This document shows positions 8,229 to 46,508 of a stretch of DNA of 46,508 bases, in pieces. The translations under genes were made by a program, and so were the position numbers. Each line of letters starts with the position of its first letter. The first letter of the stretch is position 1. Source of the DNA: Desulfobacteria bacterium. Lineage in GTDB: Archaea; Halobacteriota; Syntropharchaeia; Alkanophagales; Methanospirareceae. Under the pieces are notes generated by a model that was not told the origin of the DNA, made no database searches, and was given only the letters and a program-made list of their open reading frames with translations. The stretch lies in NCBI GenBank assembly GCA_035528755.1, contig DATKXZ010000009.1, positions 1 to 46,508 on the forward strand, written 5' to 3'.

Positions 8229-8325
8229 CCGCAATCGAACCCCGAATCATACCGGTTATCACTATGAGAAATTACGCTTGATTCGTGACTGTTCAGTCGC
8301 CACGTGCGCTGACCGTAGAAAGAGC

Positions 8326-8607: not shown

Positions 8608-8611
8608 CGTT

Positions 8612-9070
8612 TTACCTCAACTCCTTTATCGTTGTGTCTATCCGCTTCTTCAGTGGCATCGGGTTATGAACGGCTTTGGCAACGAGCTTCTCGCACTCGA
8701 AATCGATCTGCCCCGCGAGGGTTTCCGCATCCCGCCCGAAGATGACCGCGAAGAGTTTCGCCTTTGATATGCTGCGGATAGTAGCGAGATACGATAACCC
8801 TGCATCGTTATGCACGAAAACGGCGCACAGATCGAAGTCCAATCGCTTCTCCGCAAGCGCCCCTATGCACTTATCCAGATTTTTCATCCGCTCTGCGTCT
8901 ACATAACATCCTCGTGGGTCAGAGACTTCCAAAAGACGGAGCGCAGCATCCGTTCCCGCAACGAAAACCTCCAGCCCCGCTTCTTTCAGCTCGCTCGCAA
9001 GGTAAAGCGCCGCGCCCGTCTGAACCGGCAGTTCCGGACACCCCAACAGCAGCAAAGCCTTTTTAATCAT
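8612..9070 (-). CDS. Methanogen-type conserved hypothetical protein (I recall DUF1890)
   Basis: 152-aa ORF. Its start overlaps the tfuA 3' end by 8 nt. The N-terminus MIKKALLLLGCPELPVQTGAALYLASELKEAGLEV suggests a Rossmann-like fold. The family name is from memory only. Confidence 0.55.
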   Translation of the reverse strand: MIKKALLLLGCPELPVQTGAALYLASELKEAGLEVFVAGTDAALRLLEVSDPRGCYVDAERMKNLDKCIGALAEKRLDFDLCAVFVHNDAGLSYLATIRSISKAKLFAVIFGRDAETLAGQIDFECEKLVAKAVHNPMPLKKRIDTTIKELR

Positions 9071-9719: not shown

Positions 9720-10914
9720 CTCTGCACCTCCCCCCTATCCGCTCACCATCAACGCCGAACATCTCCAGGCCCGGCACGATCACTCGCACTACGGGCACGC
9801 CGATCTCCGCTCGCGTTAAATCCACCACGATCACTCGTTCTAATCCCGCAGCCCTTAACCGGGTCAGTACGTGCTGTATATCCTCGAGGAAATCATCGTT
9901 ATCCCGCGAAACGGAATCCAGCGCATCAAAATCCTCGCTATCCGCTATATCAAACCAGTGCTGGTTCTGCTTTCGCATCCACTCGTAGCCCATCACGCGC
10001 CTCAGGTCTGCGGTGGTCGTATCTTCCCTCGCGCCGTGTATCTGCGTGAGCCTGCTCTGTGCGACCTCCGTAATCGCTCGCTGTATCGCGACACGCGCAT
10101 TCGTATGCGTGCCCATCCCGATAGTGAGCAGCGTGGGGTCTTTCAGCATGATATCGTCCGAAACGGCTGCGAAAGTAGGTATACCGATGTTACTCGTTAT
10201 GTCCCGTACAAGCACGGAGACCTCAGCGTTCAGAAATTTATCGATAAGCGCGCGGATATCACCGCCGTCTACGTTCACCGTAGGGCCCGGCTTGCGCGTT
10301 ATTTCCACCAGAGACCACGCGTCACGTTCGATCACCTCAGCAAGCCCGTGAAAAATCGCCTCCTCCAGCTCGTTACCGCCCGCCAGCCCGTTCGTGTTCG
10401 TCCGGAACAGTCTGACCTTATCGTATCGAGAAGGTAATGGATGGAATACCGCATTCGCAGGCACATAGATCGCCTCCTCATTCATTAAATCGTAACCTTC
10501 CACCCACGGGATACGGACAGCCTCGACGTCCCGCACGTAATCGGGAAGAATCAACTCTCGCGGGTTTAATACGTTCTCGTGCCCATGCTCACGAAGTCCT
10601 GCATAGCTATCCACTAGAAGTTCCTGATCGCCGACTTCCGCGGAGTACCGTTCCACCGCCTCCATCATTGCGGACACTTTCGCCTCCGCCACCGTCGTTC
10701 CTTTGCCGTTATACACGGAAATGGCTCCGCCCTCTGCGGTTGGTCGTATGCTTGAGAATACCGGTATCCCGATTCTATCCAGTCCGGTTATATCCGCAAC
10801 GCGGGTAACACCAGCCACGGGCAACTTGGGATCCACACGAGCACAAGTCTCCTCCGGAGGCACTGCACGATGCGTCCCCTTCTTATAACCCTTGACACAG
10901 GACTTCAGTTTCAT
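9676..10914 (-). CDS. ycaO: YcaO-family ATP-dependent amide activator (methanogenesis marker 1 type)
   Basis: 412 aa. GKGTTVAEAKVSAMMEAVERYS and NGLAGGN are hallmark YcaO motifs. The gene is paired with tfuA. Confidence 0.9.
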   Translation of the reverse strand: MKLKSCVKGYKKGTHRAVPPEETCARVDPKLPVAGVTRVADITGLDRIGIPVFSSIRPTAEGGAISVYNGKGTTVAEAKVSAMMEAVERYSAEVGDQELLVDSYAGLREHGHENVLNPRELILPDYVRDVEAVRIPWVEGYDLMNEEAIYVPANAVFHPLPSRYDKVRLFRTNTNGLAGGNELEEAIFHGLAEVIERDAWSLVEITRKPGPTVNVDGGDIRALIDKFLNAEVSVLVRDITSNIGIPTFAAVSDDIMLKDPTLLTIGMGTHTNARVAIQRAITEVAQSRLTQIHGAREDTTTADLRRVMGYEWMRKQNQHWFDIADSEDFDALDSVSRDNDDFLEDIQHVLTRLRAAGLERVIVVDLTRAEIGVPVVRVIVPGLEMFGVDGERIGGRCRDARKQSGRIPGTES

Positions 10915-10959
10915 TCTTGCTGTTAAATAAATGAGTGTTAAACGCTTTAAGATATTATA

Positions 10960-13708: not shown

Positions 13709-14311
13709 CTATTCCGCGTCATGTTGATACGGTGCCGTCGAGCAAACCTGTTCGATGAAGCGCGTCCAGTCCACTGATCCTGGCTTGTACTTCTCTCTGA
13801 GCGCTTCCCTTCTCTCGCTTCCGCTTTCTTCTTCACTCTCAGCCTCTACCTCAGCATCAATGATCGCACGCACTACAGCAGCTACGTCTTCTACGCTCTT
13901 ACCCGTTGTATCCACTTCATAAACAATGTCGCACAGCTCTACCGCTTCTGCCAGTATAATATCCAGCGTTTCCGCTTCCACGTTCTCCTGTATCTTCTGC
14001 GGTGGAAACCCCTTCTGCTCCAGCCGGTCGGTAAGCACGGACGGCTTTGCACGCAGCACGACTGCAACATCAGGCTTCAGAAGATGAGCTAAGTGACTCT
14101 CGGCTATTATTACCGACAGCCTTTCTTCTTTATGCCGCACGTATTCGTTCAGTTTATCAAGATCCGCGATTAAACACCCCCTCTGGGTATCCACGCCGGT
14201 AAAAAAGCCTTTCTCCTCTATGATGCTATTCAGATCCGTATATTCAAGTCCGCATGCCTTACATACGCTTGTCTTTCCCGTACCGGGCGTTCCGGTGATG
14301 GCGAGAATCAT
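13709..14311 (-). CDS. Adenylate kinase isoenzyme 6 / Fap7-like NTPase
   Basis: 200 aa. It has the P-loop MILAITGTPGTGKTS and an acidic C-terminal extension. Confidence 0.75.
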   Translation of the reverse strand: MILAITGTPGTGKTSVCKACGLEYTDLNSIIEEKGFFTGVDTQRGCLIADLDKLNEYVRHKEERLSVIIAESHLAHLLKPDVAVVLRAKPSVLTDRLEQKGFPPQKIQENVEAETLDIILAEAVELCDIVYEVDTTGKSVEDVAAVVRAIIDAEVEAESEEESGSERREALREKYKPGSVDWTRFIEQVCSTAPYQHDAE

Positions 14312-14648
14312 ATTATGGTTAGAGAAGGGAGCTTTATCAAGAAGATTATTTAATCACAGCAAAGCAAAACAAACGCGAACCCTGTAACGAAAAACGCAAA
14401 GAAAAGCGAAACTGATATAAAGCACGAGCGTCAAAAATATCACACTCATCTCGTTCGGATGAGAGCGCTTACGGCATGGCGCTTTATAAGTGATGTCGAA
14501 AAACCGAAAAAGATAAAAATATATAGAAGACTCTAGTAAAGGATAGAATAGAGAACAAGGGGGAAAAGGGAGATGAAGCTAAAGGCGAAGGTGAAAGGGC
14601 AAGGTAGGAGTGCCACTGGCACTTCGAACCGCACGCTGAACCGAAAAC

Positions 14649-14690
14649 TTTATATACCCCCTTTTCTATTGGAAAAAAATTAGGAGGTGA
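14649..14690 (+). promoter_or_regulatory. Putative TATA box (tttatata, 14649-14656) and Shine-Dalgarno (aggaggtga, 14682-14690) for the surface-protein gene
   Basis: Read directly from the sequence. The SD contains the GTG that the ORF track uses as the start, which favours the ATG at 14702 as the real start. Confidence 0.5.
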
Positions 14691-14701
14691 AAAGTAAAAA
14701 A

Positions 14702-16960
14702 ATGAAAACAAAGATAATAGGCATTACACTGGCAGTAATCATGCTCGCTTCGATCTTCGGCGCTATGGTTCCTTCAACGTTGGCTACTGTAAAGCCTGCT
14801 ACACAAGTAATGACGAGCTATAATCAGACGTTTACGGTGAACTTAGACCATGTAACCCTTTGGTTGGATGGACAAGCTAGTGCCGTAGTCGTCGGTCAAC
14901 TCATAGTATTCAATAAAGATGGCGGTGCTGATGTCGCCCAAGTAACGTTGACGGGTGTCGAAGGTACTGATACCGAAGGAGAAGTTGTATTCTCAGACAA
15001 TACAGGAAAACTCGACACCACAGGACTCGAAAGGGGCCCGTATGATGCTACAGCCGATGGTGCCACTGCAACAAGAATTAACATAGGTACTGCTCGTGGC
15101 GAACTAGACCTTCGAGATACGGCAGACACGAAAACTATATCAAGCGTAACCCAAGGGAGTCCGTTTAGAGTGAAGTTTACACATTCGTTGGATGGCAATG
15201 ATGGCGTAAGTTTGAAAGTTTCAGGTCCTGCAGACTACAAACAAAATCCCGCGGATAAGAAAGTGTTCGAGAAGATAAACGTGAGTTCCATAACTGGAGA
15301 TAATGCAATAATCGATACAGATGGTTGGAGTTTAGGTACCTATACCATATACATTAAAACGGATGAGCAGTATGCACGCGGATTAGCTTTATCGACCAAC
15401 GAAAAGGAGATAACTGTGATGTCAGGTAAGATTGCCATAGCAGCAGATACAACAGAAGTGACAAAAGGATCAAAGGTGAAAATAACCGTGACTGGCGTAG
15501 CAGGTGACACAATAAAAGTTACCGCGGATGAGGGGGAATTCCCGGTCGGTGAAAATGACAATCCGAACACCGCAGTAGCCAATAACTTTGAACACACCAT
15601 AGATTCTGATGGCGTAAGAGCGTATATTGTTAAATTTGTAGATACCGGTTCAAAGAAGGTGAAGGTTGAAGTTATTGCTGGTAACCAGGTAGGTAAGGAT
15701 GCTAGTGTTACTATAACAGTAAAGAAAAAAACGGTAACATTCGATGTTCCATCGACAGCAATAATCGGTGAGGAAGTTACGATAGCTGGTGCTATAAGTT
15801 CAGGGACTGATGTGGATATCGTCATCGAGGATGCAGAGAAGGTATTCGACGACGAACCGGTAGATGAGAACAAGGAGTTCTCAGTGAAGTGGGATACCTC
15901 AAAATTGACAAAGGGCTCTTACAAGATCGAGGTATTCATTACCTCTGACATAGATACCGAAGATCCTGTGAGCTACAAAGGTGAAGATGAAGACGGCTCA
16001 ATAACGATACGGTTAACCACAGGAGAACTTACTGCTGAGCAGGCGAGAAACGTCATTGCAGAAGACGATGACTATACCTTAAAGGGAACGGCAACCGGTG
16101 TAGATAACGTGGATATAGTGCTTATCGGGCCAAAGGGATCGAAGGGTGGAGCCATCGATGACGTGAAAAAGGGGCTTTTAATAACCGATGCATCAGTAAC
16201 TGATGACGAGTTCTCCGAGGATATTGGGATGGACGAAGGTTTAGATACGGGCACGTGGATAGCGTTGGTTCTCACACCTGGACGTGATGCTGTATATGGA
16301 GACTTAACGGATAAAGTCGGGGATCCCCTTGACGCAGGTAAATTAAAAACAGCAGACCTTGACTTCACAGGTAAGGATCAAAGTCAGATTCTGGCAATAA
16401 TCAATGACAGAACGGTTAGTGTAGCAGGAAGTGATGATATAATGGAGCCGTTATCCTTCAAGGTTGAGTCCGGGTACGTGAGATTCGATCCCATCGAGTC
16501 CGTAGGAGTTGGAGATCCTTTGAACATAACGGGCAAGACCAACAGAGAGCCGGATACCACGATAACCATTTCGACCTTTGCGGGACCAACCGACCTGCCT
16601 GCAGCTATTTCAAAAGTCGCGTGGGAAACTAAGGATAACGGTGTATTCTCCGCGACCATCGACACCACTGATGCTAAGGAAGGTACGTATACCTTGCAGG
16701 CAGATGACGGCGATGGGAACACGGATACCGTAACGGTGACGATTGGCGCAGCTGCACCAGCGACACCGGCACCAACCACAGCACCAACCACAGCACCAAC
16801 CGCAGCACCAACCGCACCACCACCAGTAACAACGCCAACACCAACCGCAGCACCAACCGCAGCACCAACAACAACGCCTGAAGAACCAGGCTTTGAAGCG
16901 GTGTTCGCAATTGCAGGCTTGTTAGCTGTAGCTTACCTCGTACTGAGGATAAAGAAGTAA
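14702..16960 (+). CDS. Secreted cell-surface (S-layer-like) protein with Pro/Thr linker and PGF-CTERM archaeosortase sorting signal
   Basis: The signal peptide is MKTKIIGITLAVIMLASIFGAMVPSTLA. The body is long, acidic and beta-rich. The C-terminus APATPAPTTAPTTAPTAAPTAPPPVTTPTPTAAPTAAPTTTPEEPGFEAVFAIAGLLAVAYLVLRIKK shows a PGF motif, a TM helix and a basic tail. Confidence 0.85.
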   Translation: MKTKIIGITLAVIMLASIFGAMVPSTLATVKPATQVMTSYNQTFTVNLDHVTLWLDGQASAVVVGQLIVFNKDGGADVAQVTLTGVEGTDTEGEVVFSDNTGKLDTTGLERGPYDATADGATATRINIGTARGELDLRDTADTKTISSVTQGSPFRVKFTHSLDGNDGVSLKVSGPADYKQNPADKKVFEKINVSSITGDNAIIDTDGWSLGTYTIYIKTDEQYARGLALSTNEKEITVMSGKIAIAADTTEVTKGSKVKITVTGVAGDTIKVTADEGEFPVGENDNPNTAVANNFEHTIDSDGVRAYIVKFVDTGSKKVKVEVIAGNQVGKDASVTITVKKKTVTFDVPSTAIIGEEVTIAGAISSGTDVDIVIEDAEKVFDDEPVDENKEFSVKWDTSKLTKGSYKIEVFITSDIDTEDPVSYKGEDEDGSITIRLTTGELTAEQARNVIAEDDDYTLKGTATGVDNVDIVLIGPKGSKGGAIDDVKKGLLITDASVTDDEFSEDIGMDEGLDTGTWIALVLTPGRDAVYGDLTDKVGDPLDAGKLKTADLDFTGKDQSQILAIINDRTVSVAGSDDIMEPLSFKVESGYVRFDPIESVGVGDPLNITGKTNREPDTTITISTFAGPTDLPAAISKVAWETKDNGVFSATIDTTDAKEGTYTLQADDGDGNTDTVTVTIGAAAPATPAPTTAPTTAPTAAPTAPPPVTTPTPTAAPTAAPTTTPEEPGFEAVFAIAGLLAVAYLVLRIKK
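16751..16878 (+). repeat. Imperfect tandem repeat (gcaccaacc[a/g]ca units) encoding the Pro/Thr/Ala linker
   Basis: Seen directly in accaaccacagcaccaaccacagcaccaaccgcagcaccaaccgcaccaccacca...ccaaccgcagcaccaaccgcagcaccaaca. Confidence 0.8.
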
Positions 16961-31673: not shown

Positions 31674-31946
31674 GTGACCCAGCTTCTGCATGCTGGACTT
31701 AGTATCCACGAAGGCACCTTTTGATAAAGTCTAAATATTTCAGAAAGTAATCACTGAGGTCGCCTTCTTCGGCGAAGCCTTTCTTCGGTTTGAAACTATC
31801 AATGCTGGGGTTGGGACTTAAAGTAAAAGTTTAAGGTAAGGCTTGACCAAGCTTACTTCTTTGCCGTTGCTTTAGCCCGCTCCTTCAGCCTTCAAACGAG
31901 GTAAGAGGTCATGATAATAATGGACCGCGGGTTATCAATAGATATG

Positions 31947-31953
31947 TTTATAT
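31947..31953 (+). promoter_or_regulatory. Putative TATA box (tttatat) about 28 nt upstream of the ATG at 31978, implying a leaderless transcript
   Basis: Read directly from the sequence. The spacing fits archaeal TATA-to-TSS distances. Confidence 0.35.
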
Positions 31954-31977
31954 GTAACGTCGATACGACATTAAACC

Positions 31978-32463
31978 ATGACAAGTACATGGACAATGAC
32001 AAAGAAGCTCAAGAGAAATTTTGGCATCTCTGAAGAAGTAGCCAATGCCAAGTTAGCCTTAGATTTACTTAGATACACTGCCAAAGATCGTGGATTAGCA
32101 GAGCTGGGATATGAGCCTAATGAACTAAAAGGGCATTTGTCACGCGGAAGGGATCTTCTGATCATCCTTAAAGAAACTCTGGAGATGATTAGTGATAAAA
32201 AAACAGGGGAACTTGACGATGCTGTTGCTGATTTAGTTTATTCTCTTAAGAATTTGCGTGAGACTACAAATAAAATGTTATTAGAAAATCTTGAAGAGGG
32301 CATTGCGGAGTTGGATAGTCTGGGTGAGGATTTTTCTAATATTAATAATATTACCGTAAGTTACGATTTATTTTTGTACCTTAACTCTGCAGTTTCACAA
32401 CTTACATTCGTCACGTCTGACAGACTCAGGAGGAATTTAGGTGCGTGGACTGCACGAACTTAG
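31978..32463 (+). CDS. Hypothetical all-helical protein (161 aa), first gene of a two-gene unit
   Basis: The ORF lies in the AT-rich island. The sequence looks helix-rich by eye (LALDLLRY, LIILKETLEMI, LVYSLKNLRETTNKMLLENLEEGIAELD). It overlaps the next ORF by 23 nt. Confidence 0.6.
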   Translation: MTSTWTMTKKLKRNFGISEEVANAKLALDLLRYTAKDRGLAELGYEPNELKGHLSRGRDLLIILKETLEMISDKKTGELDDAVADLVYSLKNLRETTNKMLLENLEEGIAELDSLGEDFSNINNITVSYDLFLYLNSAVSQLTFVTSDRLRRNLGAWTART

Positions 32464-33571
32464 AAAGGACATTCTCCTCAAGAAGTTCAATCATGTAAAA
32501 GGAGAAATTGGCCAAATCAAATCGCAGGAAAGGCAATTTTTTTCTTCTATTTTAAGTGAGATTGAAAAACGATTTGGAGAGCTGCCAAGATTGGAAAACC
32601 TGTTTTTAAAAACTGGGAATAAAGAATTCTACAAATCGTATTTGTCGAAATTGGATGATATAGAGGTTCTAATAGACCAATATCTAGAAATGAATTGGTA
32701 CTTGTATGAGACATACAAATATCAGCATGAAGATCCAAAACTTAAAAAGGAACTCCACTTAATTGAAAGTTTTGTAGAGAAGATTTTAACTTCTACTGGA
32801 GCTAAAAACGATCTATTGGTGATTCTAGGAAGTGTTCTTTCTGTAATGGATAGTATTGGTATGGAGGAACATGAATTTGGCCGTTTTTTCTTCATTCCCT
32901 TTTTTGAAAGGGAAAATTATCTTTTGTGGCCTCTCTTTCCTCACGAGTTAGGTCACGCTTTTTACGACCAAAAAAGACCAATCTTTGAACATTTCTATGA
33001 AGAGATGAGCAAAGTTGTTAAGAGGGATTTCATAAAAACTCCTGGTGAGGAATCGGAAAGGAAGCGAGAGGAACAACTCAGAAGGTTCAAAACTACGTGG
33101 CATGATTGGATGTTGGAGATATTTGCGGATATTTACGGTGTTCTAACTTTGGGCCCTGCTTTCCTTTTTTCATACTTACATCAAAACCTCTGTGCCAACC
33201 CCTATAGGTTACTCGAAAATGAAATGGGTAGATATGAACATCCCCCACACATAATTAGAACAAAAATTCATTTTAGTGTTCTAAAGGGGATTATTCAAAA
33301 CGAGATTATCATGGAAGTAGTTGAAGATTTGGAGAGAAAGTATGATCTATACGAACAAAATGTTGCAGAACCGGAAAGCACATTATATCAAATGTTAGTC
33401 TGTGATGATTTAATAAATGCAAGCATTAAGGAATGCGAAAATATTCCTCGCATATATGTTGATAAAGAGGAAAAAATAGCTTCTGAGTTAGATAGCCCAA
33501 AATCAACGTTAAATGAGGATCCAATTACAGCTTTGAACGTTATATGGCTCAAGAAACTTACGGAGGCTTGA
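32441..33571 (+). CDS. Hypothetical HExxH...ExxAD zinc-metalloprotease-like protein (376 aa)
   Basis: The GTG start is preceded by aggagg at 32428-32433. HELGH is at ~32942-32956 and EIFAD at ~33116-33130, giving a gluzincin-like arrangement as in M48/ImmA-type peptidases. The N-terminal ~150 aa look helical. Confidence 0.65.
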   Translation: MRGLHELRKDILLKKFNHVKGEIGQIKSQERQFFSSILSEIEKRFGELPRLENLFLKTGNKEFYKSYLSKLDDIEVLIDQYLEMNWYLYETYKYQHEDPKLKKELHLIESFVEKILTSTGAKNDLLVILGSVLSVMDSIGMEEHEFGRFFFIPFFERENYLLWPLFPHELGHAFYDQKRPIFEHFYEEMSKVVKRDFIKTPGEESERKREEQLRRFKTTWHDWMLEIFADIYGVLTLGPAFLFSYLHQNLCANPYRLLENEMGRYEHPPHIIRTKIHFSVLKGIIQNEIIMEVVEDLERKYDLYEQNVAEPESTLYQMLVCDDLINASIKECENIPRIYVDKEEKIASELDSPKSTLNEDPITALNVIWLKKLTEA

Positions 33572-33577
33572 GTCTAC

Positions 33578-35773
33578 CTACCAGGGGATATAATCTAGTG
33601 AAAAGCCTCGTTCAGCAAAAGGGATTACATCTTCTGCTATTTTAATTGTTACTGGCATTTTCATGCCTCTGAGTGGAGAGCCCCAATTAAGTTCAGAAAG
33701 ATAGAGAACATCTCTACAAACTTCTTTTATGTCAAAAGTTCCCTCAAAACTGACAACCTTGGTAAGCAGGGGATTTGCAGTTCCTTGTGTGAGTGAGGGG
33801 GCACCAGTAGTTGCTAAGATTGCATCGCTATTGCTCAATAGGGTAACCGACCCTATCCCACACATTTGTGCAGTTTCATTGTCACCCTCATAAATCCGAA
33901 AGGGGTTGAGTTTTCGGAGTTCAACGCCATAGCAATTAATTACTTCGGGAAGTAACCCTTCTTTTTTCAATCTGGAGATGGCATCGCTTATGCCGTTCTT
34001 CTCACTTTTTCTAATTTCGCCATCCCTGTGAATAACTATAGACTTAATCCTCGCCGATTCGTCTTTGTATTTTCTAATTGAATCAAAAATAGCATCGGAA
34101 ACAATTTCAACCATCGTGTCTTCACTGATGGCTTCCCCCCGTTGTGGAATTGTTTTCCCGATCTCCATGTAAGTTCCGCTTTTATCGATTATGTAGCAGT
34201 TCCCCATCACGTGGGACCTATCACCACCAACATCAAGACCTATATAACAATCGGCTGATAATTGCGTTTGTAGAACCCAGGGTTTAAATCCCATTTTAGC
34301 AGCAAATCCTACTGCAGTTACAAAAATCATATTTTTATACTTTCTCAAAACCTCTCCCCTTGTTTTGAGGGAAGAAGAACGATAACACTGAAGAGGAATG
34401 TTTTTCAAAACCTTCTTAAGATAAAAATAGCTGCCGTCTTCCCAGCGATGCAATGCTAATGCACCGCTTAATTTTTGACTATAGTCAGATAACCAAGTCT
34501 CTATTTCTCCCCGGTCTTCATAGCTCATAATTTGGATCCTTTCTGGTAGAGAATACTTTAGATACTTATTAAATGCGTGTTTAATGTCACCGTAAAATTG
34601 TATGGCATCCGCTCTAGAAACAATTCCCGAGTGAAATAAAACAAATGTGTCCAGAAACCTAGGTATAGAGTATGGACCAAAGTCTTTTAGAAGATTTTTT
34701 TTCTTAAAGTCCCAATTTCTTAGATCCTCATCATTAGCCTCTAAAAAAGCCTTATTTCCAAACTCTAATGTTGGCAGCGTTAAAGTATCGAATTGAAATT
34801 TTCCTTCAGATTTACCATCAAGATCAACGTTTATGTCATACTCGCCCAGTTTAATTGGAGTGAAAAAGTTGAGTAATTGTTTCGTTAATTCCCAACGTCT
34901 TTCAGGGTCAAGGAAAATGTAGTCCTTTTGGATTGAATTAGGGATATCCTCTGTGCCCACAGTAGACTTCAGGAGTGATGAGGCTTCCCGATATGGTTCT
35001 CTTTGTTTGTCGTAATATTTTATTAAAATTACATTCTCATTCGGATTGATTAATTCAGCAATATCCGGTCTTTTTCTAATATCCCTATGATATTCTAAAA
35101 CACTTGTAAGCCTCCCTTTATAAAGGAAAGATTTCTCAGACGCTTTTTTAGAGGATACGGCATGGAATCGGCATCCCCTTTTTGTATCAGGAAAACATTC
35201 GACTAATTTATGTCCTGTTAATTCCGAAGTAAGCTTAGTTATCCCGATTTCGTCCATCTTCTGTTTCAAAGTTTGCGATTCCAAAGTTTTCGTTGTTGGG
35301 TCTAAAGTCAGCATAAAACCTTTGTAGAAATCAATTCGAAAAACTACCCCTTGATAAAGTTCAAACTCGCCTCGTTCTACCGTTGGATTACGCATGTAGT
35401 AAGTGTTGTATTTTCCCCAAAATTTATGCTTGGTTTCAAGCTTATTTCTAATACCAGAATATAAGAGATCTCTAAAGGCTTCTCGATCCGTTTTTTTTGA
35501 GAAATCTAATGTATATTCTTTGAGAAATTTGAGTTCATATACGTTGTCTACGTAAAATGGAGCTTTATCTTCATAATTTCCCAGCAAAAGAACGCAAGGT
35601 TTCCCTTCATAGAAATAATCTGTTGCATATGATCTTAAATAATTGCCAAAAGATCTCGCACAGTACTTAAGTTTCCAAAAAATTTCATTGCTTTGTGGTA
35701 GCCCATCAACACTGTACAAACTACATGAGATCTCTTGTTCGACGCCACTAATATCAAAAGAGTTCAAGAACAT
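33578..35773 (-). CDS. Long prokaryotic Argonaute (N-PAZ-MID-PIWI)
   Basis: The track ORF is 747 aa from a GTG at 35821. The ATG at 35773 (MFLNSFDISG, preceded by ggtgat) gives 731 aa. MID 5'-end pocket candidates are YLKK...PLQC...AAKMG (Y-K-Q-K). PIWI motifs are YIGLDVGGD, QRGEAI, IVIHRDGE and a C-terminal PVTIKIAEDV. Confidence 0.85.
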   Translation of the reverse strand: MFLNSFDISGVEQEISCSLYSVDGLPQSNEIFWKLKYCARSFGNYLRSYATDYFYEGKPCVLLLGNYEDKAPFYVDNVYELKFLKEYTLDFSKKTDREAFRDLLYSGIRNKLETKHKFWGKYNTYYMRNPTVERGEFELYQGVVFRIDFYKGFMLTLDPTTKTLESQTLKQKMDEIGITKLTSELTGHKLVECFPDTKRGCRFHAVSSKKASEKSFLYKGRLTSVLEYHRDIRKRPDIAELINPNENVILIKYYDKQREPYREASSLLKSTVGTEDIPNSIQKDYIFLDPERRWELTKQLLNFFTPIKLGEYDINVDLDGKSEGKFQFDTLTLPTLEFGNKAFLEANDEDLRNWDFKKKNLLKDFGPYSIPRFLDTFVLFHSGIVSRADAIQFYGDIKHAFNKYLKYSLPERIQIMSYEDRGEIETWLSDYSQKLSGALALHRWEDGSYFYLKKVLKNIPLQCYRSSSLKTRGEVLRKYKNMIFVTAVGFAAKMGFKPWVLQTQLSADCYIGLDVGGDRSHVMGNCYIIDKSGTYMEIGKTIPQRGEAISEDTMVEIVSDAIFDSIRKYKDESARIKSIVIHRDGEIRKSEKNGISDAISRLKKEGLLPEVINCYGVELRKLNPFRIYEGDNETAQMCGIGSVTLLSNSDAILATTGAPSLTQGTANPLLTKVVSFEGTFDIKEVCRDVLYLSELNWGSPLRGMKMPVTIKIAEDVIPFAERGFSLDYIPW

Positions 35774-35798
35774 ATCATCACCAGAGTTTATTCTTACT

Positions 35799-36368
35799 TT
35801 ACAGCACCTCTTTTTCTTCACATTCTATATTACACCATTCACAACTAGCACCAACAAATGCAGATGGCGGTGAATCACTCATTAAAATATTGGTGTATTC
35901 TCCAATTTCTGATGGCAGATCGTCATATATGTCACTTAAACTGTAGCTAATATTTGCATCTTCATAGTGTATCACCCCTCTCAGTGGGTTCTCTTCGAAT
36001 AGATCTAATTTATCAACCATATACAAATATATCATCATTTGTACATGATGACTGGCACTTTGCCTACCACCTTTGCAATCGTAAATTACAACTTCGTCAT
36101 CTGCAATGTGTAATAAATCTACTCTACCGACTAATGTCCCTCCAGAAACATCCAATTTTACATATTCTTCCTTTTTAATTCTTCCGCCTCTTTTTTCCAG
36201 TCCATTACTCAGATCCTTCAGCATTTTAGTGTGGTTGATCTTCCACTGAACCAAACTCTTACTTAGTTGTGCTGTAGCTTCTTTGTGCCTCATTTTATAC
36301 CAAATCTTAAAGAGGCAAGCCTCATCTCCTGAAATCAGCCTACTCAAATCTGATACGGCAACGTTCAT
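35799..36368 (-). CDS. Cas4-like / RecB-family PD-(D/E)xK nuclease with 4-Cys Fe-S motif
   Basis: 189 aa. GRVDLL (motif II D), VVIYDCKGG (D-x-K) and HHVQMMIYLY (QxxxY) are present. There is one N-terminal Cys (DEACLF) and the C-terminal CEWCNIEC. It ends 25 nt before the pAgo ATG on the same strand. Confidence 0.75.
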   Translation of the reverse strand: MNVAVSDLSRLISGDEACLFKIWYKMRHKEATAQLSKSLVQWKINHTKMLKDLSNGLEKRGGRIKKEEYVKLDVSGGTLVGRVDLLHIADDEVVIYDCKGGRQSASHHVQMMIYLYMVDKLDLFEENPLRGVIHYEDANISYSLSDIYDDLPSEIGEYTNILMSDSPPSAFVGASCEWCNIECEEKEVL

Positions 36369-36418
36369 TTTATCGTCAAAAAGAGATAAGGGAAATACAT
36401 TAATATTAAGTTAAGCCA

Positions 36419-36676
36419 TCAATGATTTTTATAGGGTAAATTACTCCGTAAACACGGGCAGACTTTTATAAGGGGCTCCCTCTGTTTTTGAGAATAATTG
36501 GATGTGGGGCAATTTATCTCTAAATCCTCACGGATTTCCCGATTAAAGTTTTTATCGGTTGGATGTGCATGTAAAATAACCACACTTTCAAAAAACCCTA
36601 ACGCCAGTTGCAATGAGTCAAATCCCGAGGAAACGGTAATTATTCTCCTCTTTTTATTTCCCAATACCGAATTCAA
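36419..36676 (-). pseudogene. Start-less or degenerate reading frame upstream of the nuclease-pAgo pair
   Basis: The track shows 85 aa from a TTG. By my translation the frame stays open upstream to ~36740 (LQEYLNYQKPLFLPSNGTLLQKPDSVQEALNSV...) with no ATG. VVILHAHPTDKNF...EINCPTS faintly resembles the C-terminus of small metallophosphoesterases (GHTH...NPGS), but key residues differ. Confidence 0.3.
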
Positions 36677-36783
36677 CGCTTCTTGTACGCTATCAGGCTT
36701 CTGTAGAAGCGTACCATTCGAGGGAAGAAATAGTGGCTTCTGATAATTTAAATATTCCTGGAGTTAGTTAGCAATAGTAAGAG

Positions 36784-38514
36784 ATGCACAACCTCGATAT
36801 AGCACGAATTTTTAACGAGATTGCGGATATTCTGGAAGTGAAAGGCGAGAACGCCTTTAAGATACGCGCGTACCGAAAGGCCGCACTGACGATCGAAACA
36901 CTCATCCAGGACTTAACGGTGATCGCCGAGCGCGGCGGCGTGAAAGAGCTGAAGCAGATCCCGGGTATTGGCGAAGGTATTGCGAAGAAGATCGTCGAAA
37001 TCGCAGAGACCGGCGATTGCAAGAAGCACCGCGAATTGAAACAGGAAATGCCGTCGGAGTTGCTCGAGCTCTTAGCCATACCGCGTGTCGGCCCCAAGAC
37101 GATCGCGAAGGTGCATCAGGAGCTTGGTATAACGAATATAGAGGAATTGGAGCAGGCTGCGAAATCGCATCAGTTAGCTGGCATTCCGGGATTCGGCGCC
37201 AAGGTGGAGGAGAACATTGTGAAGGGTATAGCGCAATACCGGGGTTATCAAGGCCGTGCATTGCTGTCCGTCGCGCTTCCCTACGCCGAATCGATCGTTA
37301 ACGAACTGAAGAAGTTGGATGCCGTGGAGCAGCTAATAATAGCAGGCAGTTTGCGACGAATGCGTGAGACGATCGGCGACATCGACATACTGGTCGTCTC
37401 GAAACGGCCTAACGAGGTGATGGATGCATTTACAAGCCTTGACGGTGTGGAGGACGTGATCGCAAAGGGCACAACGAAATCCTCGATTATCATCAACGGT
37501 ATAAACGCGGACGTGCGTGTGGTGGAGGCGGTTTCCTTCGGCGCGGCGGCACATTATTTCACCGGTTCCAAGCACCATAACGTACGAATACGGGAGTTAG
37601 GCGTGAAGAAGGGGCTGAAGATAAACGAATACGGCGTTTTCCGCGGTGAGGAACGGATTGGCGGTGAGCATGAGGAGGACGTGTTCGCGAGTGTTGGGCT
37701 CTCGTACATTCCTCCTGAGCTGCGGGAAGATCGAGGAGAGGTAGAAGCAGCGAAGGAGAACAGAATACCGATGTTGATCGAGCTCAGCGATCTCAAGGGC
37801 GACTTGCACGTGCATACCAACTGGAGTGACGGGCGGGACAGTATAGAGGGGATGGCGGAAGCTGCGCTCGCGTTAGGCTACGAGTATATCGCCGTGGCTG
37901 ACCATTCCCCTGCAGTGGGCGTCGCAGGCGGCTTGAACGAGGAGAAAATACCGAAGCGGCTGGAAGAAATAGAACGGGTGAACACGCGATTTGAAGAAGA
38001 AGGAGTTAAATTCAGGGTGCTCAATGCAGTCGAGGTGGATATAAAGTCAGATTTCTCCATGGATTTCTCTGATGAGATATTAAAAGCTCTGGACGTAGTC
38101 GTGGGTGCTGTCCACTCAAAATTTTCGCAAGACCGCCCGGCGATGACGAAGCGGATCGTCACCGCAATGGAGAACCCGCACGTAGATATCATTGCGCACC
38201 CTACCGGTAGGCTGTTAGGCAAACGGGACCCGTACCAAGTGGATATGGAGCAGCTTATGGCGGCTGCAAAGGACACGGGGACCACGCTGGAACTGAACTC
38301 GTTCCCGACACGGCTTGACCTCAACGATCTCCACTGCAAGATGGCGAAAGAATACGGCGTTTTAGTCGCTATCTCCACGGATGCGCATGCGACCACGCAG
38401 ATGCGGGATGTGCGGATGTATGGCGTAGCAACCGCTCGGCGCGGCTGGCTCGAACCAAAGGACGTGCTCAATACGAGAAGCTTGAAAGAACTAATAAAGT
38501 GTGTGAAGCATTAA
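36784..38514 (+). CDS. polX: Family X DNA polymerase with C-terminal PHP domain (PolX)
   Basis: 576 aa. The N-terminus IARIFNEIADILEVKGENAFKIRAYRKAA has HhH motifs. GSLRRMRETIGDIDILV carries the catalytic aspartates. PHP motifs are DLHVHTNWSDG and DAH. Confidence 0.92.
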   Translation: MHNLDIARIFNEIADILEVKGENAFKIRAYRKAALTIETLIQDLTVIAERGGVKELKQIPGIGEGIAKKIVEIAETGDCKKHRELKQEMPSELLELLAIPRVGPKTIAKVHQELGITNIEELEQAAKSHQLAGIPGFGAKVEENIVKGIAQYRGYQGRALLSVALPYAESIVNELKKLDAVEQLIIAGSLRRMRETIGDIDILVVSKRPNEVMDAFTSLDGVEDVIAKGTTKSSIIINGINADVRVVEAVSFGAAAHYFTGSKHHNVRIRELGVKKGLKINEYGVFRGEERIGGEHEEDVFASVGLSYIPPELREDRGEVEAAKENRIPMLIELSDLKGDLHVHTNWSDGRDSIEGMAEAALALGYEYIAVADHSPAVGVAGGLNEEKIPKRLEEIERVNTRFEEEGVKFRVLNAVEVDIKSDFSMDFSDEILKALDVVVGAVHSKFSQDRPAMTKRIVTAMENPHVDIIAHPTGRLLGKRDPYQVDMEQLMAAAKDTGTTLELNSFPTRLDLNDLHCKMAKEYGVLVAISTDAHATTQMRDVRMYGVATARRGWLEPKDVLNTRSLKELIKCVKH

Positions 38515-44515: not shown

Positions 44516-45037
44516 TTAAATTGCCGAATCAAACGGCGGACTGTACTTCACCACGCCGCGTACGTTCTTCAACGCACCGGGAACAAGCTCAAGCACCATA
44601 AACGCTTCGTCAGGCACTTCAAATGGCGCCTTTATGCCACAGTCGCGCGCAGGCCTGAACCCGAACCGGGGATAGTACTCAGGATGCCCAACCACGATCA
44701 CGATCGAATAGCCGAGCTTTTTACATGCTGCCAACCCGTGCTGAACTAACAGAGTACCAATACCGCTGTTCTGGCATTCGGTGAGAACGGCCATGGGGGC
44801 AAGTGCTAACGCCTCTACTGAAGTTTCAGGCGATTCGATTTTTACTGGACTAAAAAGGATATGGCCGACTGTTTGAGTATTATCGTCTAAGGCCACAAGG
44901 GATAATTCGGGGATGAAATAGTCTGAAGTACGAATAGCCGCGATTAAGTTCGCTTCCTCCTCGCCCTGAAAAGCGCGGGTGGTTACGTTTTCGATGCTTG
45001 CGATATCTTCCGGTTTTTCTGGTCTGATATGGATCAT
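44516..45037 (-). CDS. GNAT-family N-acetyltransferase
   Basis: The track ORF starts at 45076. M14 (MIHIRPEKPEDIASI, ATG at 45037) is the likely start and coincides with the end of the direct repeat. QNSGIGTLLV is the acetyl-CoA binding motif. Confidence 0.85.
   Translation of the reverse strand: MIHIRPEKPEDIASIENVTTRAFQGEEEANLIAAIRTSDYFIPELSLVALDDNTQTVGHILFSPVKIESPETSVEALALAPMAVLTECQNSGIGTLLVQHGLAACKKLGYSIVIVVGHPEYYPRFGFRPARDCGIKAPFEVPDEAFMVLELVPGALKNVRGVVKYSPPFDSAI
44889..45037. repeat. Direct repeat copy 1 (5' end of the intact GNAT gene)
   Basis: 44910-45037 equals 45602-45729 (128 nt) with a single mismatch (ggtCtgat versus ggtTtgat), counted by eye. The adjacent 21 nt (44889-44909 versus 45581-45601) still encode the same PELSLVA peptide but differ at 7 synonymous positions. 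Confidence 0.9.
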
Positions 45038-45072
45038 TGTTACAAAAAAGAGGGCTAATACTACGCTAATTT

Positions 45073-45329
45073 TCACCGAGCATATACCTTACTCCGCCTA
45101 TCGAGCTTTAGTATAACAACCCTCTTCTGATCCTCGTTTATTTCATACAACATGCGGTACGCACCCAGCCTGATTCTGTAAAGATTGGTCTCTCCACGGA
45201 TTTTTCGATAGGGGTGAGAAAAAGGGTTGCTTTTCATATCCTCTATAACAGTTCTCAAGTTCTCTCTGTGAGCCCTCGGCAGTTCTCCTACGACTTCGCA
45301 GCCTTTCGGGCGAATACAATGTCATACAT
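45073..45329 (-). pseudogene. relE: RelE/ParE-family toxin gene interrupted by a frameshift after codon ~12
   Basis: My own translation: the ATG at 45329 gives MYDIVFARKAAKS* (stop at 45288-45290). The -1 frame continues VVGELPRAHRENLRTVIEDMKSNPFSHPYRKIRGETNLYRIRLGAYRMLYEINEDQKRVVILKLDRRSKVYAR*, which the track reports as 45073..45258 from a TTG. Joined, the two parts give a typical ~85-aa RelE. Confidence 0.75.
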
Positions 45330-45528
45330 TATCTTCGTCCCCGAAGACCTCGTCGAAATGAAGATATTCTCCTGCTTCTATCTCTTTCTGGAGCGCCTCG
45401 ACCTCATTCTGCTCGTCCTTGTCCAACTCCTCAAAGCCGAGAAAGTTATCGATTTTGGCATTAAGCTTCTGTAATAGACTCTCAATACGATCGATTTTCT
45501 CCATCAGGGCCTCAGACATTTTTTTCAC
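45322..45528 (-). CDS. Putative antitoxin (acidic coiled-coil, 68 aa) paired with the relE-like gene
   Basis: Its stop (45322-45324) overlaps the toxin ATG region (aatgtatga), the typical TA gene arrangement. I do not recognise the family by eye. Confidence 0.6.
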   Translation of the reverse strand: MKKMSEALMEKIDRIESLLQKLNAKIDNFLGFEELDKDEQNEVEALQKEIEAGEYLHFDEVFGDEDNV

Positions 45529-45580
45529 TTAAAGTAACTACTACTCAACAGTATTTAAAATTACCCGAGATCTTTTCTGA

Positions 45581-45729
45581 GCGGCTACTAAAGATAGCTC
45601 AGGGATGAAATAGTCTGAAGTACGAATAGCCGCGATTAAGTTCGCTTCCTCCTCGCCCTGAAAAGCGCGGGTGGTTACGTTTTCGATGCTTGCGATATCT
45701 TCCGGTTTTTCTGGTTTGATATGGATCAT
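45581..45729 (-). pseudogene. Truncated 5' fragment of a GNAT gene (direct repeat copy 2)
   Basis: It encodes MIHIKPEKPEDIASIENVTTRAFQGEEEANLIAAIRTSDYFIPELSLVA, then runs into unrelated sequence (AQKRSRVILNTVE*). The track ORF 45541..45789 is this fragment with an artificial N-terminal extension. Confidence 0.85.
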
Positions 45730-45758
45730 ACATCTTTCATAATCTGCCGTAAAACTTC

Positions 45759-46316
45759 TTAATCTGCCTCTATTATTTGAATATCCCAAATGAAGCCCTC
45801 AGTGTTATTCTTTCCAGTATAATAGTTAACTATCCCATGATATTTTCTCTTATTTTTTGGATTGTTAATTTCCCAATAATCTAGCATTATCTGCATAAGG
45901 AATCCATCACTTTCAGAAATATTGTTCATGATTTCCGACGCGGGTATAGAAATTTTTTCGTTCTTTTGTGTAGGAAAGACAAAATATGTTATATTTATAT
46001 CTTCAGCTAGATCTTTTCTCCCCAATTCTGTAAAAGGCGTCTGATAAAAAATTATATCTCCTCTTTTAAATTCTATTGCTGCTGGAAGTTTCCCACTATT
46101 CTCTAGAACTACCCCTATAGATGAAGTGCCACTATCAACGAGAATGTCTGAAACAAAAACAAAAGGTCGATTATTTGCTTCAAAGTCATTTTTCATTGTT
46201 GAAGCCATTTTATGTGTAGAGACAGCATAATACATAGTAACACCTACTAAAGCAAGCACTAGGATGACTTGGATTTGTTTATCATTATTACCAATCCAAT
46301 TCCAAACTTTCCTCAT
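45759..46316 (-). CDS. Hypothetical N-terminally membrane-anchored protein in AT-rich DNA
   Basis: 185-aa ORF with one TM segment (IQVILVLALVGVTMYYAV) followed by a beta-rich domain. I do not recognise a family. Confidence 0.5.
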   Translation of the reverse strand: MRKVWNWIGNNDKQIQVILVLALVGVTMYYAVSTHKMASTMKNDFEANNRPFVFVSDILVDSGTSSIGVVLENSGKLPAAIEFKRGDIIFYQTPFTELGRKDLAEDINITYFVFPTQKNEKISIPASEIMNNISESDGFLMQIMLDYWEINNPKNKRKYHGIVNYYTGKNNTEGFIWDIQIIEAD

Positions 46317-46508
46317 TTGTTAAACAACATCTAAGCTATCGTGAACATATATAGTTTCGCATGCTCCCGAGGCTGTCCAACAATTATCTACGAATCGATA
46401 GAATACACTTAGATCTAAAGCTCACTTGCTATCCTTCCAGCTTGTGTTAACGTGTCTATGAATTATTGGACGTGCAAAAACCGGTTGATTTTTATATTAG
46501 TGGTTCAT

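Follow-up and report, generated by a model that had tools for sequence, protein, structure and literature searches.

The described partners of pAgo proteins comprise nucleases, NADases (SIR2/TIR), membrane effectors and Cas4-family enzymes. To our knowledge, RslAgo and the enzymes of the PnyAgo group have been studied only as isolated proteins. CapH/CapP and ImmR/ImmA, each consisting of an HTH repressor and a zinc metallopeptidase, control CBASS as well as further defence or mobile elements. Their proteases belong to M78/COG2856, the partner is a clear XRE-HTH protein, and the cassette is usually transcribed divergently from the operon that it regulates. Gluzincin anti-repressor proteases are an established theme. 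Craspase combines Cas7-11 and the TPR-CHAT protease with Csx30 and a sigma factor; CalpL/CalpT/CalpS belongs to type III CRISPR. The Lit protease acts on its own.

The text of Lisitskaya et al. 2022 (PMC9360449) names only a nuclease, an HTH regulator and a sigma factor in D-R pAgo operons (PliAgo/RslAgo and PnyAgo groups) and reports a sigma70 operon layout for the PnyAgo group. That text does not mention the two genes downstream, a small gene and a protease gene. APACE1 (PMC12094033) combines a long-A pAgo with the Cas4-family nuclease ACE1, and the accessory protein boosts plasmid interference. The archaeal locus described here resembles both. As in the D-R pAgo operons, its pAgo gene is preceded by a PD-(D/E)XK Cas4-like gene, and as in APACE1 a long pAgo that appears catalytically competent is co-encoded with a Cas4-family nuclease with the D..DxK residues and 1+3 cysteines. 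However, ACE1 is a cyanobacterial protein of ~278 aa, whereas the nuclease of the locus has 189 aa, and APACE has neither a protease nor a small partner. RslAgo's own operon does carry a small gene and an M48-like protease gene directly downstream, as does the sigma70-type operon of Emticicia. In these bacterial operons the pair is collinear with the pAgo gene, whereas in the archaeal locus it is convergent and there is no HTH or sigma gene.

The window, i.e. the whole stretch of 46,508 nucleotides that was analysed, contains the locus as a compact island with the following features:

31900 to 36750, no strand assigned: low-GC island of four genes, 35-40% GC, flanked by the genes for NAD-dependent DNA ligase and PolX.
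31947 to 31954, plus strand: TATA-box-like element TTTATATG, by direct reading; a putative promoter element.
31978 to 32463, plus strand: ORF1, 161 aa, ATG start, from the ORF call and homologues.
32429 to 32434, plus strand: AGGAGG, a Shine-Dalgarno-like motif within the 3' end of ORF1, by direct reading.
32441 to 33571, plus strand: ORF2, 376 aa, GTG start, a predicted M48-like gluzincin (AF2 model and alignments).
33578 to 35821, minus strand: long pAgo, 747 aa (Pfam Piwi and PADLOC pAgo models).
35799 to 36368, minus strand: Cas4-like PD-(D/E)XK nuclease, 189 aa (PDDEXK_1, Cas_Cas4 and PADLOC Cas4 matches).

The coordinates bear out the arrangement given in the preliminary description, in which ORF1 and ORF2 overlap by 23 nt (32441-32463) and converge on the pAgo gene. 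The gap is 6 nt, because ORF2 ends at 33571 and the pAgo stop codon occupies 33578-33580. The AT-rich composition said to be common to the pair and the pAgo operon is also found: the GC content between about 32 and 37 kb is 35-40%, compared to ~50-57% in the flanks. The AGGAGG motif had been placed 7 nt before the GTG start; the motif is present, but the spacer is 6 nt. Because it lies within the 3' end of ORF1 at this distance from the GTG codon, translational coupling of the two ORFs is suggested. The ATG start of ORF1 and the GTG start of ORF2 are supported, because the N-termini of the homologues begin at the same points, and sequence comparison confirms both ORFs as genuine genes. The end of TTTATATG lies 23 nt 5' of the start codon of ORF1, a distance at which the archaeal mRNA would have a short leader or none at all. 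On the opposite strand, the Cas4-like gene overlaps the start of the pAgo gene by 23 nt.

In related loci the shared homology stops at the start of the Cas4-like gene. The ligase and PolX genes are outside the conserved neighborhood, and these loci also lack the 85-aa ORF that precedes the Cas4-like gene in the window. A contig with a ligase of the same 90%-identity cluster diverges just past the ligase coding region, and this empty-site comparison ended at the contig end. No Rfam family matched the island, no att-like repeats were present among the repeats of its flanks, and no regulator gene is evident within it. The only tRNA gene of the window, tRNA-Leu at 5639-5722, is far outside the island. 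None of the RNA-seq runs searched for the locus sequence contains it.

The HELGH sequence of ORF2 and the EIFADIYG said to follow it by about 55 residues occupy residues 168-172 and 226-233, respectively, and E226 is 54 residues past H172. When the catalytic-domain profile is aligned with E. coli HtpX (hhalign Prob 78.7%, E 1.7e-5), three motifs are in register:

32942 to 32956, plus strand: HELGH (H168 E169 L170 G171 H172), the zincin metal-binding/catalytic motif, by conservation and alignment to HEISH of HtpX.
33116 to 33130, plus strand: ExxxD (E226-I-F-A-D230) with the putative third zinc ligand, a Glu, aligned to EFHAD of HtpX.
33239 to 33259, plus strand: HPPxxxR (H267-P-P-H-I-I-R273), aligned to THPPLDKR of HtpX.

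The HPPxxxR motif marks the C-terminal end of M48 catalytic domains. In an alignment of 52 sequences H168, E169, D230, P268 and R273 are invariant, and G171, H172, H267 and the presumed zinc ligand E226 are at least 90% conserved; these nine residues, together with W220, W223 and G238, are conserved family-wide. The preliminary description had allowed that HExxH might not be conserved among homologues. Among the relatives of at least 300 aa (n=139), HExxH and ExxxD are each present in 137/139, H[PY]x4-6R in 132/139 and all three in 132/139. An exhaustive HMMER profile search returned 739 cluster representatives, 49 of them at E<=1e-10; a word-indexed search had yielded five relatives, and a search of this kind with the 52-sequence profile added almost none. 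A pattern-based scan of 185,579 GTDB representative genomes, one per species, seeded with two peptide patterns, confirmed no relative.

The AF2 model of ORF2 has a pLDDT of 92.8 and a pTM of 0.90 (with a 5-sequence alignment the pLDDT was 57.6). Its N-terminal four-helix domain (approximately aa 1-120) is followed by a three-stranded sheet with the active-site helix (aa 125-178), then by the glutamate helix (aa 203-237) and finally by a helical C-terminal part. HELGH falls within the predicted helix 160-178, and the succession of sheet, active-site helix and glutamate helix makes the zincin layout visible. A Foldseek search of the PDB placed ZMPSTE24 first (prob 0.95, E 0.09, TM 0.28; global superposition is limited, because ORF2 has an additional N-terminal domain and no membrane barrel), with MATCAP, Ste24p and abylysin among the top matches. 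The same search against viral structures (BFVD) gave nothing.

Comparison of ORF2 with Pfam, NCBIfam, PADLOC, PHROG and PDB-sequence models gave no match, and PADLOC found nothing in nine more family members and their partners. PDB sequence searches with the single protein and with the catalytic-domain profile gave no peptidase match, and the full-length profile gave only coiled-coil noise over residues 1-130. The weak Pfam matches that recur among the relatives are to M48, M78 and M13 only. PF01435, unmatched by ORF2 itself, is weakly matched by 6/52 relatives (best E 0.0019), and relative P0120 falls just short of the cut-off (20.2 versus 20.3 bits). Because it is below this curated threshold, the family is filed as distant M48-like and not as a member of PF01435. 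PF06114 (M78) is likewise unmatched by ORF2 and weakly matched by 5/52 relatives. Family members of 500-600 aa show no informative domain fusion by Pfam.

The preliminary description had offered an M48-like or an ImmA/IrrE-like assignment. The former stands, given the HtpX alignment and ZMPSTE24 as first fold match, whereas the latter does not, given the missing PF06114 match and an ORF1 without HTH. HExxH, E-x-x-(A/C)-D and (T)HPPxxxR occur in the same order and spacing in M48 (HtpX, Ste24/ZMPSTE24, BepA, Oma1) and M56 (BlaR1/MecR1) proteins, and in M56 this fold can serve as a signal-transducing anti-repressor protease. Unlike both, ORF2 has no predicted TM segment, possesses a unique N-terminal four-helix domain and has an obligatory small partner gene; it is also below every curated threshold. 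Motif conservation, the HtpX alignment and the top fold match to ZMPSTE24 are the reasons for calling ORF2 a soluble distant M48-type gluzincin. As shown by sequence and model, it is a predicted cytoplasmic zinc metalloprotease related distantly to HtpX/Ste24.

The product of ORF1, which may be helical as the preliminary description read it, is an acidic (pI 5.15) soluble protein with no TM segment. It has no Pfam or PDB relative, and NCBIfam, PADLOC and PHROGs gave nothing meaningful. The ORF1 family alignment has 17 members, and the small partners in most loci were found by jackhmmer. The partners of the ORF1 type have no HTH and no other DNA-binding match, and 13/18 small partners are acidic. 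The bacterial partners have no detectable homology to ORF1. The small gene is always directly upstream of the protease gene.

The pAgo matches Pfam Piwi at 2.5e-7 and PADLOC pAgo models at up to 6.8e-71. The nearest solved structures are those of VbAgo (7.6e-21) and PliAgo (3.2e-19). Its predicted tetrad is D530, E563, D600 and E730; with the VbAgo tetrad as reference (PMC13219720), the first three residues are conserved and E730 takes the place of D756. The fourth position is D or E in most members of the clade, and its pAgos apparently keep an intact DED(D/E) tetrad. The identity to bacterial pAgos is ~27-31%, mostly in the PIWI half. Judged by its nearest relatives only, the pAgo of the window is probably DNA-guided and RNA-cutting. 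The Cas4-like nuclease (PDDEXK_1 5e-9, Cas_Cas4 6.8e-6, PADLOC Cas4 1.3e-9) has the residues C18, D84, D98-x-K100, Q110..Y114 and C176/C179/C183. Its gene is optional in the pAgo loci, whereas the pair of small gene and protease gene is constant. Proteolytic removal of an auto-inhibitory C-terminal tail of the pAgo, as described for VbAgo, was set aside as a role for the protease, because the pAgo of the window ends only 17 residues past its fourth tetrad residue.

Recurrence beside pAgo genes, a point raised in the preliminary description, is the rule. A small gene followed by the protease gene adjoins a long pAgo gene in 27/28 metagenomic loci with enough flank. The pair is followed by a convergent pAgo gene in L001-L008, L010, L011, L013, L014, L016-L023, L025-L027, L030 and L031; L015 and L035 have the collinear order pAgo, small gene, protease, and L024 has the pair without a pAgo. 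On short-form plasmids of cultured strains the pair is linked to a pAgo gene in 6/6 cases and directly adjoins it in 5/6, including the plasmids of Halorientalis, Haloplanus and Halobacterium salinarum. On the Natrinema plasmid the pAgo gene is 2.9 kb from the pair, beyond an IS5. Plasmid pRUNSL03 of Runella slithyformis carries an HTH gene, a PD-(D/E)XK gene, the gene of RslAgo (accession confirmed as WP_013921749.1), a 125-aa gene and the gene of a 378-aa protease; the operon runs from WP_041344179 to WP_013921747. The Emticicia operon, which has the sigma70 layout, consists of sigma70, a 180-aa gene, a 295-aa gene, pAgo, a 128-aa gene and a 382-aa protease. XRE-HTH genes are found only at the starts of bacterial operons.

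The linkage of pair and pAgo holds down to ~20-25% identity, whether the layout is convergent or collinear, and adjacency is near-absolute over ~11 lineages that share <35% identity and include archaeal and bacterial replicons. The pAgo operon itself contains the pair in Runella, Emticicia, L035 and L015, where the genes overlap or are at most 26 nt apart. Across loci, the identity of ORF2 varies together with that of the pAgo (Pearson 0.93; 78 non-independent pairs). Among the neighbors in the pair loci are a Type ISP R-M enzyme, an SNF2 helicase, TIR-NACHT, TIR-UvrD and a Type I R subunit. No locus has the short form beside another defence system in place of pAgo. In a long-form sister branch the small gene and the protease gene are followed by a DCD-like gene in 5/5 loci, and the Bradyrhizobium operon of this type starts with MerR. 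A literature search found the pair unreported and a protease partner of pAgo undescribed, in agreement with the earlier statement that such a link would be new.

The pair is thus probably a conserved accessory module of one pAgo clade, co-encoded across divergent genomes, and it looks like an overlooked part of the pAgo defence system. The preliminary description had left open whether the pair is independent or coupled to the pAgo; the genomic evidence, namely the adjacency and its retention in two gene orders, favors coupling over independence. In the best reading, the protease and its partner form a control module for defence effectors that could harm the cell itself, here a PliAgo/VbAgo-like pAgo. 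Regulated proteolysis as an on-switch is the most economical mechanism, because the same pair accompanies an unrelated, potentially self-harmful dCTP-deaminase-like enzyme. ORF1, mostly acidic and presumably translated in a coupled manner with ORF2, would probably bind the protease as a substrate, inhibitor or adaptor. An infection-related cue would cause the protease to cut an inhibitory or regulatory protein. The target could be its own small partner or, in bacteria, the XRE-HTH or sigma/anti-sigma regulator that is encoded first in the operon. Cleavage would license the DNA-guided, probably RNA-cutting pAgo, for which the Cas4-like nuclease may supply guides.

Several observations weigh against such control of the pAgo. 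Its relatives cleave RNA alone in vitro (PMC9360449) and its tetrad is apparently intact, so that a partner is not obviously required. Furthermore, the pair of the window is transcribed towards the pAgo operon and not together with the pAgo gene, its island has no regulator gene, and ORF1 has no recognizable domain. L024 lacks a pAgo, no homology is detectable between ORF1 and the small partners of bacteria, and co-localization in defence islands is possible without functional dependence. As for the protease assignment, the E-value of the Foldseek match is weak, its TM-score is low, and ORF2 itself passes no curated M48 model.

A role of the pair in transcription only, as a switch like ImmR/ImmA, CapH/CapP or BlaI/BlaR1, is unlikely. 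In such a switch a stress or infection signal would turn on the pAgo operon through cleavage of a DNA-binding repressor or anti-sigma factor, with ORF1 as the regulator or an adaptor for it. Like CapH/CapP and ImmR/ImmA, the pair is a two-gene cassette of a small protein and an HExxH protease, modularly attached to different defence effectors, and control of two different effectors by one module is typical of regulators. Operon starts encode XRE-HTH proteins (L035, Runella), sigma-70 and a 180-aa protein (Emticicia) or MerR (Bradyrhizobium, DCD type), and Lisitskaya et al. (PMC9360449) also give HTH or sigma70 for such operons. However, ORF1 has no DNA-binding signature, its counterparts are largely acidic, and ORF2 fails Pfam M78. 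A regulator is found neither in the window's island nor as a conserved neighbor in the archaeal loci examined. The pair is operon-distal or convergent, and not promoter-divergent as in CapH/CapP.

An Argonaute counterpart of Craspase/CalpL, with pAgo, protease and small protein forming a guide-dependent proteolytic signalling system, is unlikely. Recognition of invader RNA by the DNA-guided pAgo would activate the M48-like protease, which would cut the small partner or a bacterial anti-sigma factor or repressor and so cause a transcriptional or growth-arrest response; the same cassette would be re-used to gate dCTP deaminase. The likeness lies in the combination of a guide-dependent RNA-targeting effector, a protease and a small protein, with a sigma factor in some bacterial operons (Emticicia). 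The proteases differ, however, being caspase-like or Lon in those systems and a gluzincin here, and the pAgo of the window apparently retains its own nuclease tetrad.

It is rather unlikely that the two genes constitute a separate module for defence, abortive infection or toxin-antitoxin action that merely travels with the pAgo and works by itself as the Lit protease does, the protease being the effector or toxin and the small protein its inhibitor or sensor. The pair is separable from the pAgo, because L024 and the long-form DCD loci have none. Its transcription in archaeal loci is separate and convergent, and its contexts are defence islands, where unrelated systems cluster. Against this stand the almost absolute adjacency to pAgo across divergent archaeal and bacterial lineages, the position of the pair within four pAgo operons, the parallel divergence of ORF2 and pAgo, and the lack of any other defence system in the place of the pAgo beside the short form. 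Lastly, despite its distant M48 homology, the notion that ORF2 is an HtpX-like housekeeping or quality-control peptidase beside the pAgo by chance is highly improbable and effectively refuted by context: the family is rare, patchy, without a relative confirmed in the two-pattern GTDB scan and always paired with a small gene, ORF2 lacks a TM segment, the flanking ligase and PolX are not conserved neighbors, and the pair is found in defence islands, on plasmids and in low-GC islands, not in housekeeping loci.

The pair also defines a sizeable protein family, whose 739 cluster representatives have no Pfam, NCBIfam or PADLOC model. Cultured hosts exist (Runella slithyformis DSM 19594, Emticicia oligotrophica DSM 17448 and Halobacterium salinarum KBTZ03). 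Because the pair sits in the RslAgo operon and in the sigma70 operon of Emticicia, it gives a lead on the cellular role or restraint of DNA-guided RNA-cutting Argonautes. The second branch, linked to dCTP deaminase, suggests a protease switch that prokaryotic immunity can reuse.

An island of 35-40% GC, with DNA ligase and PolX gene regions of ~50-57% GC on either side, holds four genes in the window. The features of the locus are as follows.

Ending 23 nt before the ORF1 ATG, plus strand: TATA-like TTTATATG, by direct reading of the sequence
31978-32463, plus strand: ORF1, small protein gene, 161 aa
32429-32434, plus strand: AGGAGG, 6 nt before the ORF2 GTG
32441-33571, plus strand: ORF2, protease gene, 376 aa, GTG start, with HELGH at residues 168-172 and EIFADIYG at residues 226-233
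33578-35821, minus strand: prokaryotic Argonaute (pAgo), 747 aa, convergent to ORF2; Pfam Piwi 2.5e-7, PADLOC pAgo models down to 6.8e-71
35799-36368, minus strand: Cas4-like PD-(D/E)XK gene, 189 aa

Checked against the ORF list and the sequence itself, the preliminary description holds for the coordinates, the 23-nt overlap of ORF1 and ORF2, the GTG start, both motifs and the 6 nt between the end of the ORF2 stop (33571) and the pAgo stop. The Shine-Dalgarno spacer is 6 nt, not 7 nt as described there. The sequence suggests that ORF1 and ORF2 are translationally coupled. The Cas4-like gene shares 23 nt with the start of the pAgo gene, and its product has one N-terminal and three C-terminal cysteines as well as D..DxK and QxxxY.

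Three more stretches of lowered GC (40-45%) lie at 1-2000, 14000-16000 and 45000-46508. The contig L038 carries a ligase of the same 90%-identity cluster as the window ligase and shares its upstream synteny (S2, Memo, ThiC). All similarity is gone just past the ligase coding region (L038:8024-8366 compared with 31674-31977), which points to the region 3' of the ligase as a spot where insertions vary, in a comparison that spans 343 nt up to the contig end. The 90%-identity cluster of the PolX protein (36784-38514) contains the NCBI entry HUV03294.1, labelled 'Desulfobacteria bacterium'; the labels on close relatives of ORF1 and ORF2 read Methanophagales/ANME-1, and the other window genes are archaeal in appearance. 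Inconsistent binning or labelling of public MAGs is the probable cause.

ORF2 has no match in Pfam, NCBIfam, PADLOC, PHROGs or the PDB sequences. Among 5.8 billion proteins, a word-indexed search picked out only four relatives, of which one shares 25% identity and the others 73-77%; an exhaustive HMMER search with an alignment of these relatives expanded the family to 739 cluster representatives at E<=1e-3, of which 49 reach E<=1e-10. The proteins are mostly 350-400 aa long, with a second group of 450-500 aa, and all database homologs encountered are annotated 'hypothetical protein'. Residues H168, E169, G171, H172, W220, W223, E226, D230, G238, H267, P268 and R273 are conserved in a 52-sequence alignment. 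Among the 139 family representatives of at least 300 aa, HExxH is present in 137, ExxxD at the right distance in 137, and HExxH, ExxxD and HPPxxxR together in 132, which removes the earlier concern that HExxH might not be conserved among homologs. Such conservation is what active enzymes would show.

HExxH, ExxxD and HPPxxxR are motifs of M48 peptidases. The profile of the catalytic region of the family was compared by hhalign with HtpX of E. coli K-12 (from NC_000913.3) and aligned over 107 columns (Prob 78.7%, E 1.7e-5), pairing HExxH with HEISH, ExxxD with EFHAD and HPPxxxR with THPPLDKR. The AlphaFold2 model calculated from 52 sequences has a pLDDT of 92.8 and a pTM of 0.90 (pLDDT 57.6 from five sequences). 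It predicts that the chain begins with four long helices, followed by a three-stranded sheet; HExxH lies on a helix at 160-178, and E226 and D230 lie on a long helix at 203-237. The top Foldseek match in the PDB is ZMPSTE24 (prob 0.95, E 0.09, TM 0.28; no match at E<1e-3), followed by MATCAP, with abylysin and Ste24p lower; all are gluzincins. Weak Pfam matches among the relatives are to M48 (6), M78 (5), M13 (3) and WLM (1), and ORF2 has no transmembrane segment. By profile and model, ORF2 is predicted to belong to a family of soluble gluzincins that are distantly M48-like and fall outside the curated PF01435 model; the HtpX alignment bears out the M48-like option proposed originally, and the weak ZMPSTE24 match agrees with it.

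A gene of 112-180 aa lies upstream of the protease everywhere, overlapping it or a few bases apart. Close homologs of ORF1 are 66-83% identical, one being a 'hypothetical protein' of a Candidatus Methanophagaceae (ANME-1) MAG. The small partners (n=17) align weakly, the archaeal group sharing an N-terminal MTRQWQLMRDA..FL...AN.AL signature, and homology between bacterial and archaeal partners is not detectable. They have no relative in Pfam or PDB and no transmembrane segment; 13 of 18 are acidic.

Contexts were sampled for ~45 loci of the family of 739 representatives, and all fetched loci were HMM-scored; 36 were metagenomic, and 4 of these 36 were too short to judge. A pAgo adjoins the protease in 27 of the 28 evaluable short-form (ORF2-type) loci, which include many close relatives and amount to ~11 lineages at <35% protease identity to one another. 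The layout is convergent in 25 of these 27, ranging from a few-nt gap between the stops to a gene overlap of ~36 nt, and collinear with the pAgo upstream in two (L015, L035). At L024:6580-8965 the small gene and protease are kept, with no pAgo within 8 kb. Between the window and distant loci the proteases are 24-29% identical and the pAgos 28-35%, and the pairwise identities of the two proteins correlate (Pearson 0.93, 78 non-independent pairs). These loci and the plasmids below answer the question of whether the pair recurs beside pAgo genes: the protease cassette is almost always linked to a single pAgo clade, and the linkage takes two gene orders. That the pair is an independent defence or toxin-antitoxin module is improbable.

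The Cas4-like gene is confined to L016 and the subclade of the window. The L035 operon consists of XRE-HTH, PD-(D/E)XK, pAgo (758 aa, VbAgo/PliAgo-like), a 149-aa gene and the protease, the PD-(D/E)XK gene being upstream of the pAgo; TIR-NACHT and TIR-UvrD genes flank this operon. Near other linked loci are genes for a Type ISP R-M enzyme, an SNF2 helicase and a Type I R subunit. The neighbors of the pair are typical of defence islands, and a housekeeping role for ORF2 is effectively excluded.

In archaeal loci the protease and pAgo genes run towards each other, and the 3' ends of their coding regions usually overlap (L002, L010, L011, L017-L025), by ~36 nt in all loci of the P0005/P0011/P0012 type (named after individual ORF2 relatives) and by 4-16 nt in other loci; in the window 6 nt lie between them (33569-33580). 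With coding ends so placed, the predicted transcripts would overlap antisense at their 3' ends. The pAgo at L021:2672-4862 is broken into two ORFs; L021, L024 and the Natrinema caseinilyticum plasmid are three decayed or rearranged copies.

Searching annotated plasmids by tblastn located the module in cultured organisms.

Halorientalis sp. IM1011, Haloplanus rubicundus, Halobacterium salinarum KBTZ03: small gene, protease, convergent pAgo
Natrinema caseinilyticum NZ_CP100447.1 (L045), 4550-10934: pAgo 2.9 kb from the pair, behind IS5
Runella slithyformis DSM 19594 pRUNSL03 (L040), 1499-6684: HTH, PD-(D/E)XK, WP_013921749.1, 125-aa gene, 378-aa protease
Emticicia oligotrophica pEMTOL01 (L041): sigma70, 180-aa gene, 295-aa gene, pAgo, 128-aa gene, 382-aa protease

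WP_013921749.1 is RslAgo, a DNA-guided RNA-cleaving pAgo characterized by Lisitskaya et al. (Methods, PMC9360449); the text of that paper names only a nuclease, an HTH regulator and a sigma factor as operon partners. Directly after RslAgo lie the unannotated WP_013921748.1 (125 aa) and WP_013921747.1 (378 aa, HELAH..EFFCD..HPPDEAR), and a multiubiquitin/ThiF/DUF6527 cluster is found just downstream of the operon. In Natrinema, the IS5 transposase and three other genes separate the pair from the pAgo. The Emticicia sigma-70 gene starts the operon and overlaps the unannotated 180-aa protein gene by 4 nt (L041:619-1757); this protein has no Pfam match and is a candidate anti-sigma factor and possible protease substrate. 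On Halorientalis pHOS300 (L039:2804-5345), the module is preceded at 0.2-2.8 kb by a TFIIB-family gene and by a DUF2250 gene whose product is weakly similar to MarR; this may be a coincidence on a TFB-rich plasmid.

The nearest solved relatives of the window pAgo are VbAgo (7.6e-21) and PliAgo (3.2e-19), two nucleases that use DNA guides to cut RNA (PMC13219720, PMC9360449), and by analogy with them it may target RNA. Mapping from VbAgo D550/E584/D617/D756 and the clade alignment places its tetrad at D530, E563, D600 and E730. The pAgo is probably catalytically competent, because these residues fit the D-E-D-(D/E) of the clade, from which few members deviate, by loss of one residue (L014, L027, L031). 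The E730 codon (33632-33634, minus strand) specifies Glu at the position of VbAgo Asp756, where D and E alternate within the clade.

A sister branch of the family, the long form (462-480 aa), occurs in operons of a small gene (145-179 aa), the protease and a dCTP-deaminase-like (DCD-like) gene (PF22769, 9.4e-31), in this order in 5/5 loci, four metagenomic and one plasmid-borne.

L032:921-3491; L033:7015-9480; L034:1006-3550; L036:208-2587: metagenomic DCD-type loci
L043, Bradyrhizobium quebecense plasmid NZ_CP088023.1, 3637-6568: MerR gene first, then small gene, protease, DCD-like gene

This operon looks like an undescribed three-gene defence candidate of the nucleotide-depletion type. The cassette of protease and small partner is modular, because it is re-used with the pAgo and with the DCD-like enzyme, two unrelated effectors. 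Both could harm the host if unrestrained.

We infer that the cassette controls or licenses its effectors by proteolysis, which might work in three ways. The protease might destroy an inhibitor, the acidic small partner being the obvious candidate. Alternatively, it might cleave a transcription regulator of the operon (XRE-HTH, anti-sigma, MerR), as do ImmA, CapP and BlaR1, proteases that act on such regulators; for the archaeal systems, an ORF1 devoid of a DNA-binding signature and a window devoid of a regulator count somewhat against this. Finally, target recognition by the pAgo might switch the protease on, as in Craspase or CalpL. This third possibility is made somewhat less likely by the apparently intact tetrad of the pAgo, by the existence of a branch linked to DCD-like genes and by the location of the pair at the far end of the operon.

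The words 'protease', 'peptidase' and 'metallo' are absent from the text of Ryazansky et al. 2018. No description of the small gene and protease pair was found in the literature searched (pAgo proteases, D-R pAgos, VbAgo, dCTP deaminase), which leaves most subscription-journal papers outside its reach; within it, the expectation that an Argonaute-linked protease would be new holds. pAgo systems with accessory proteins are already known; the protease accessory and the ORF2 family appear to be new.
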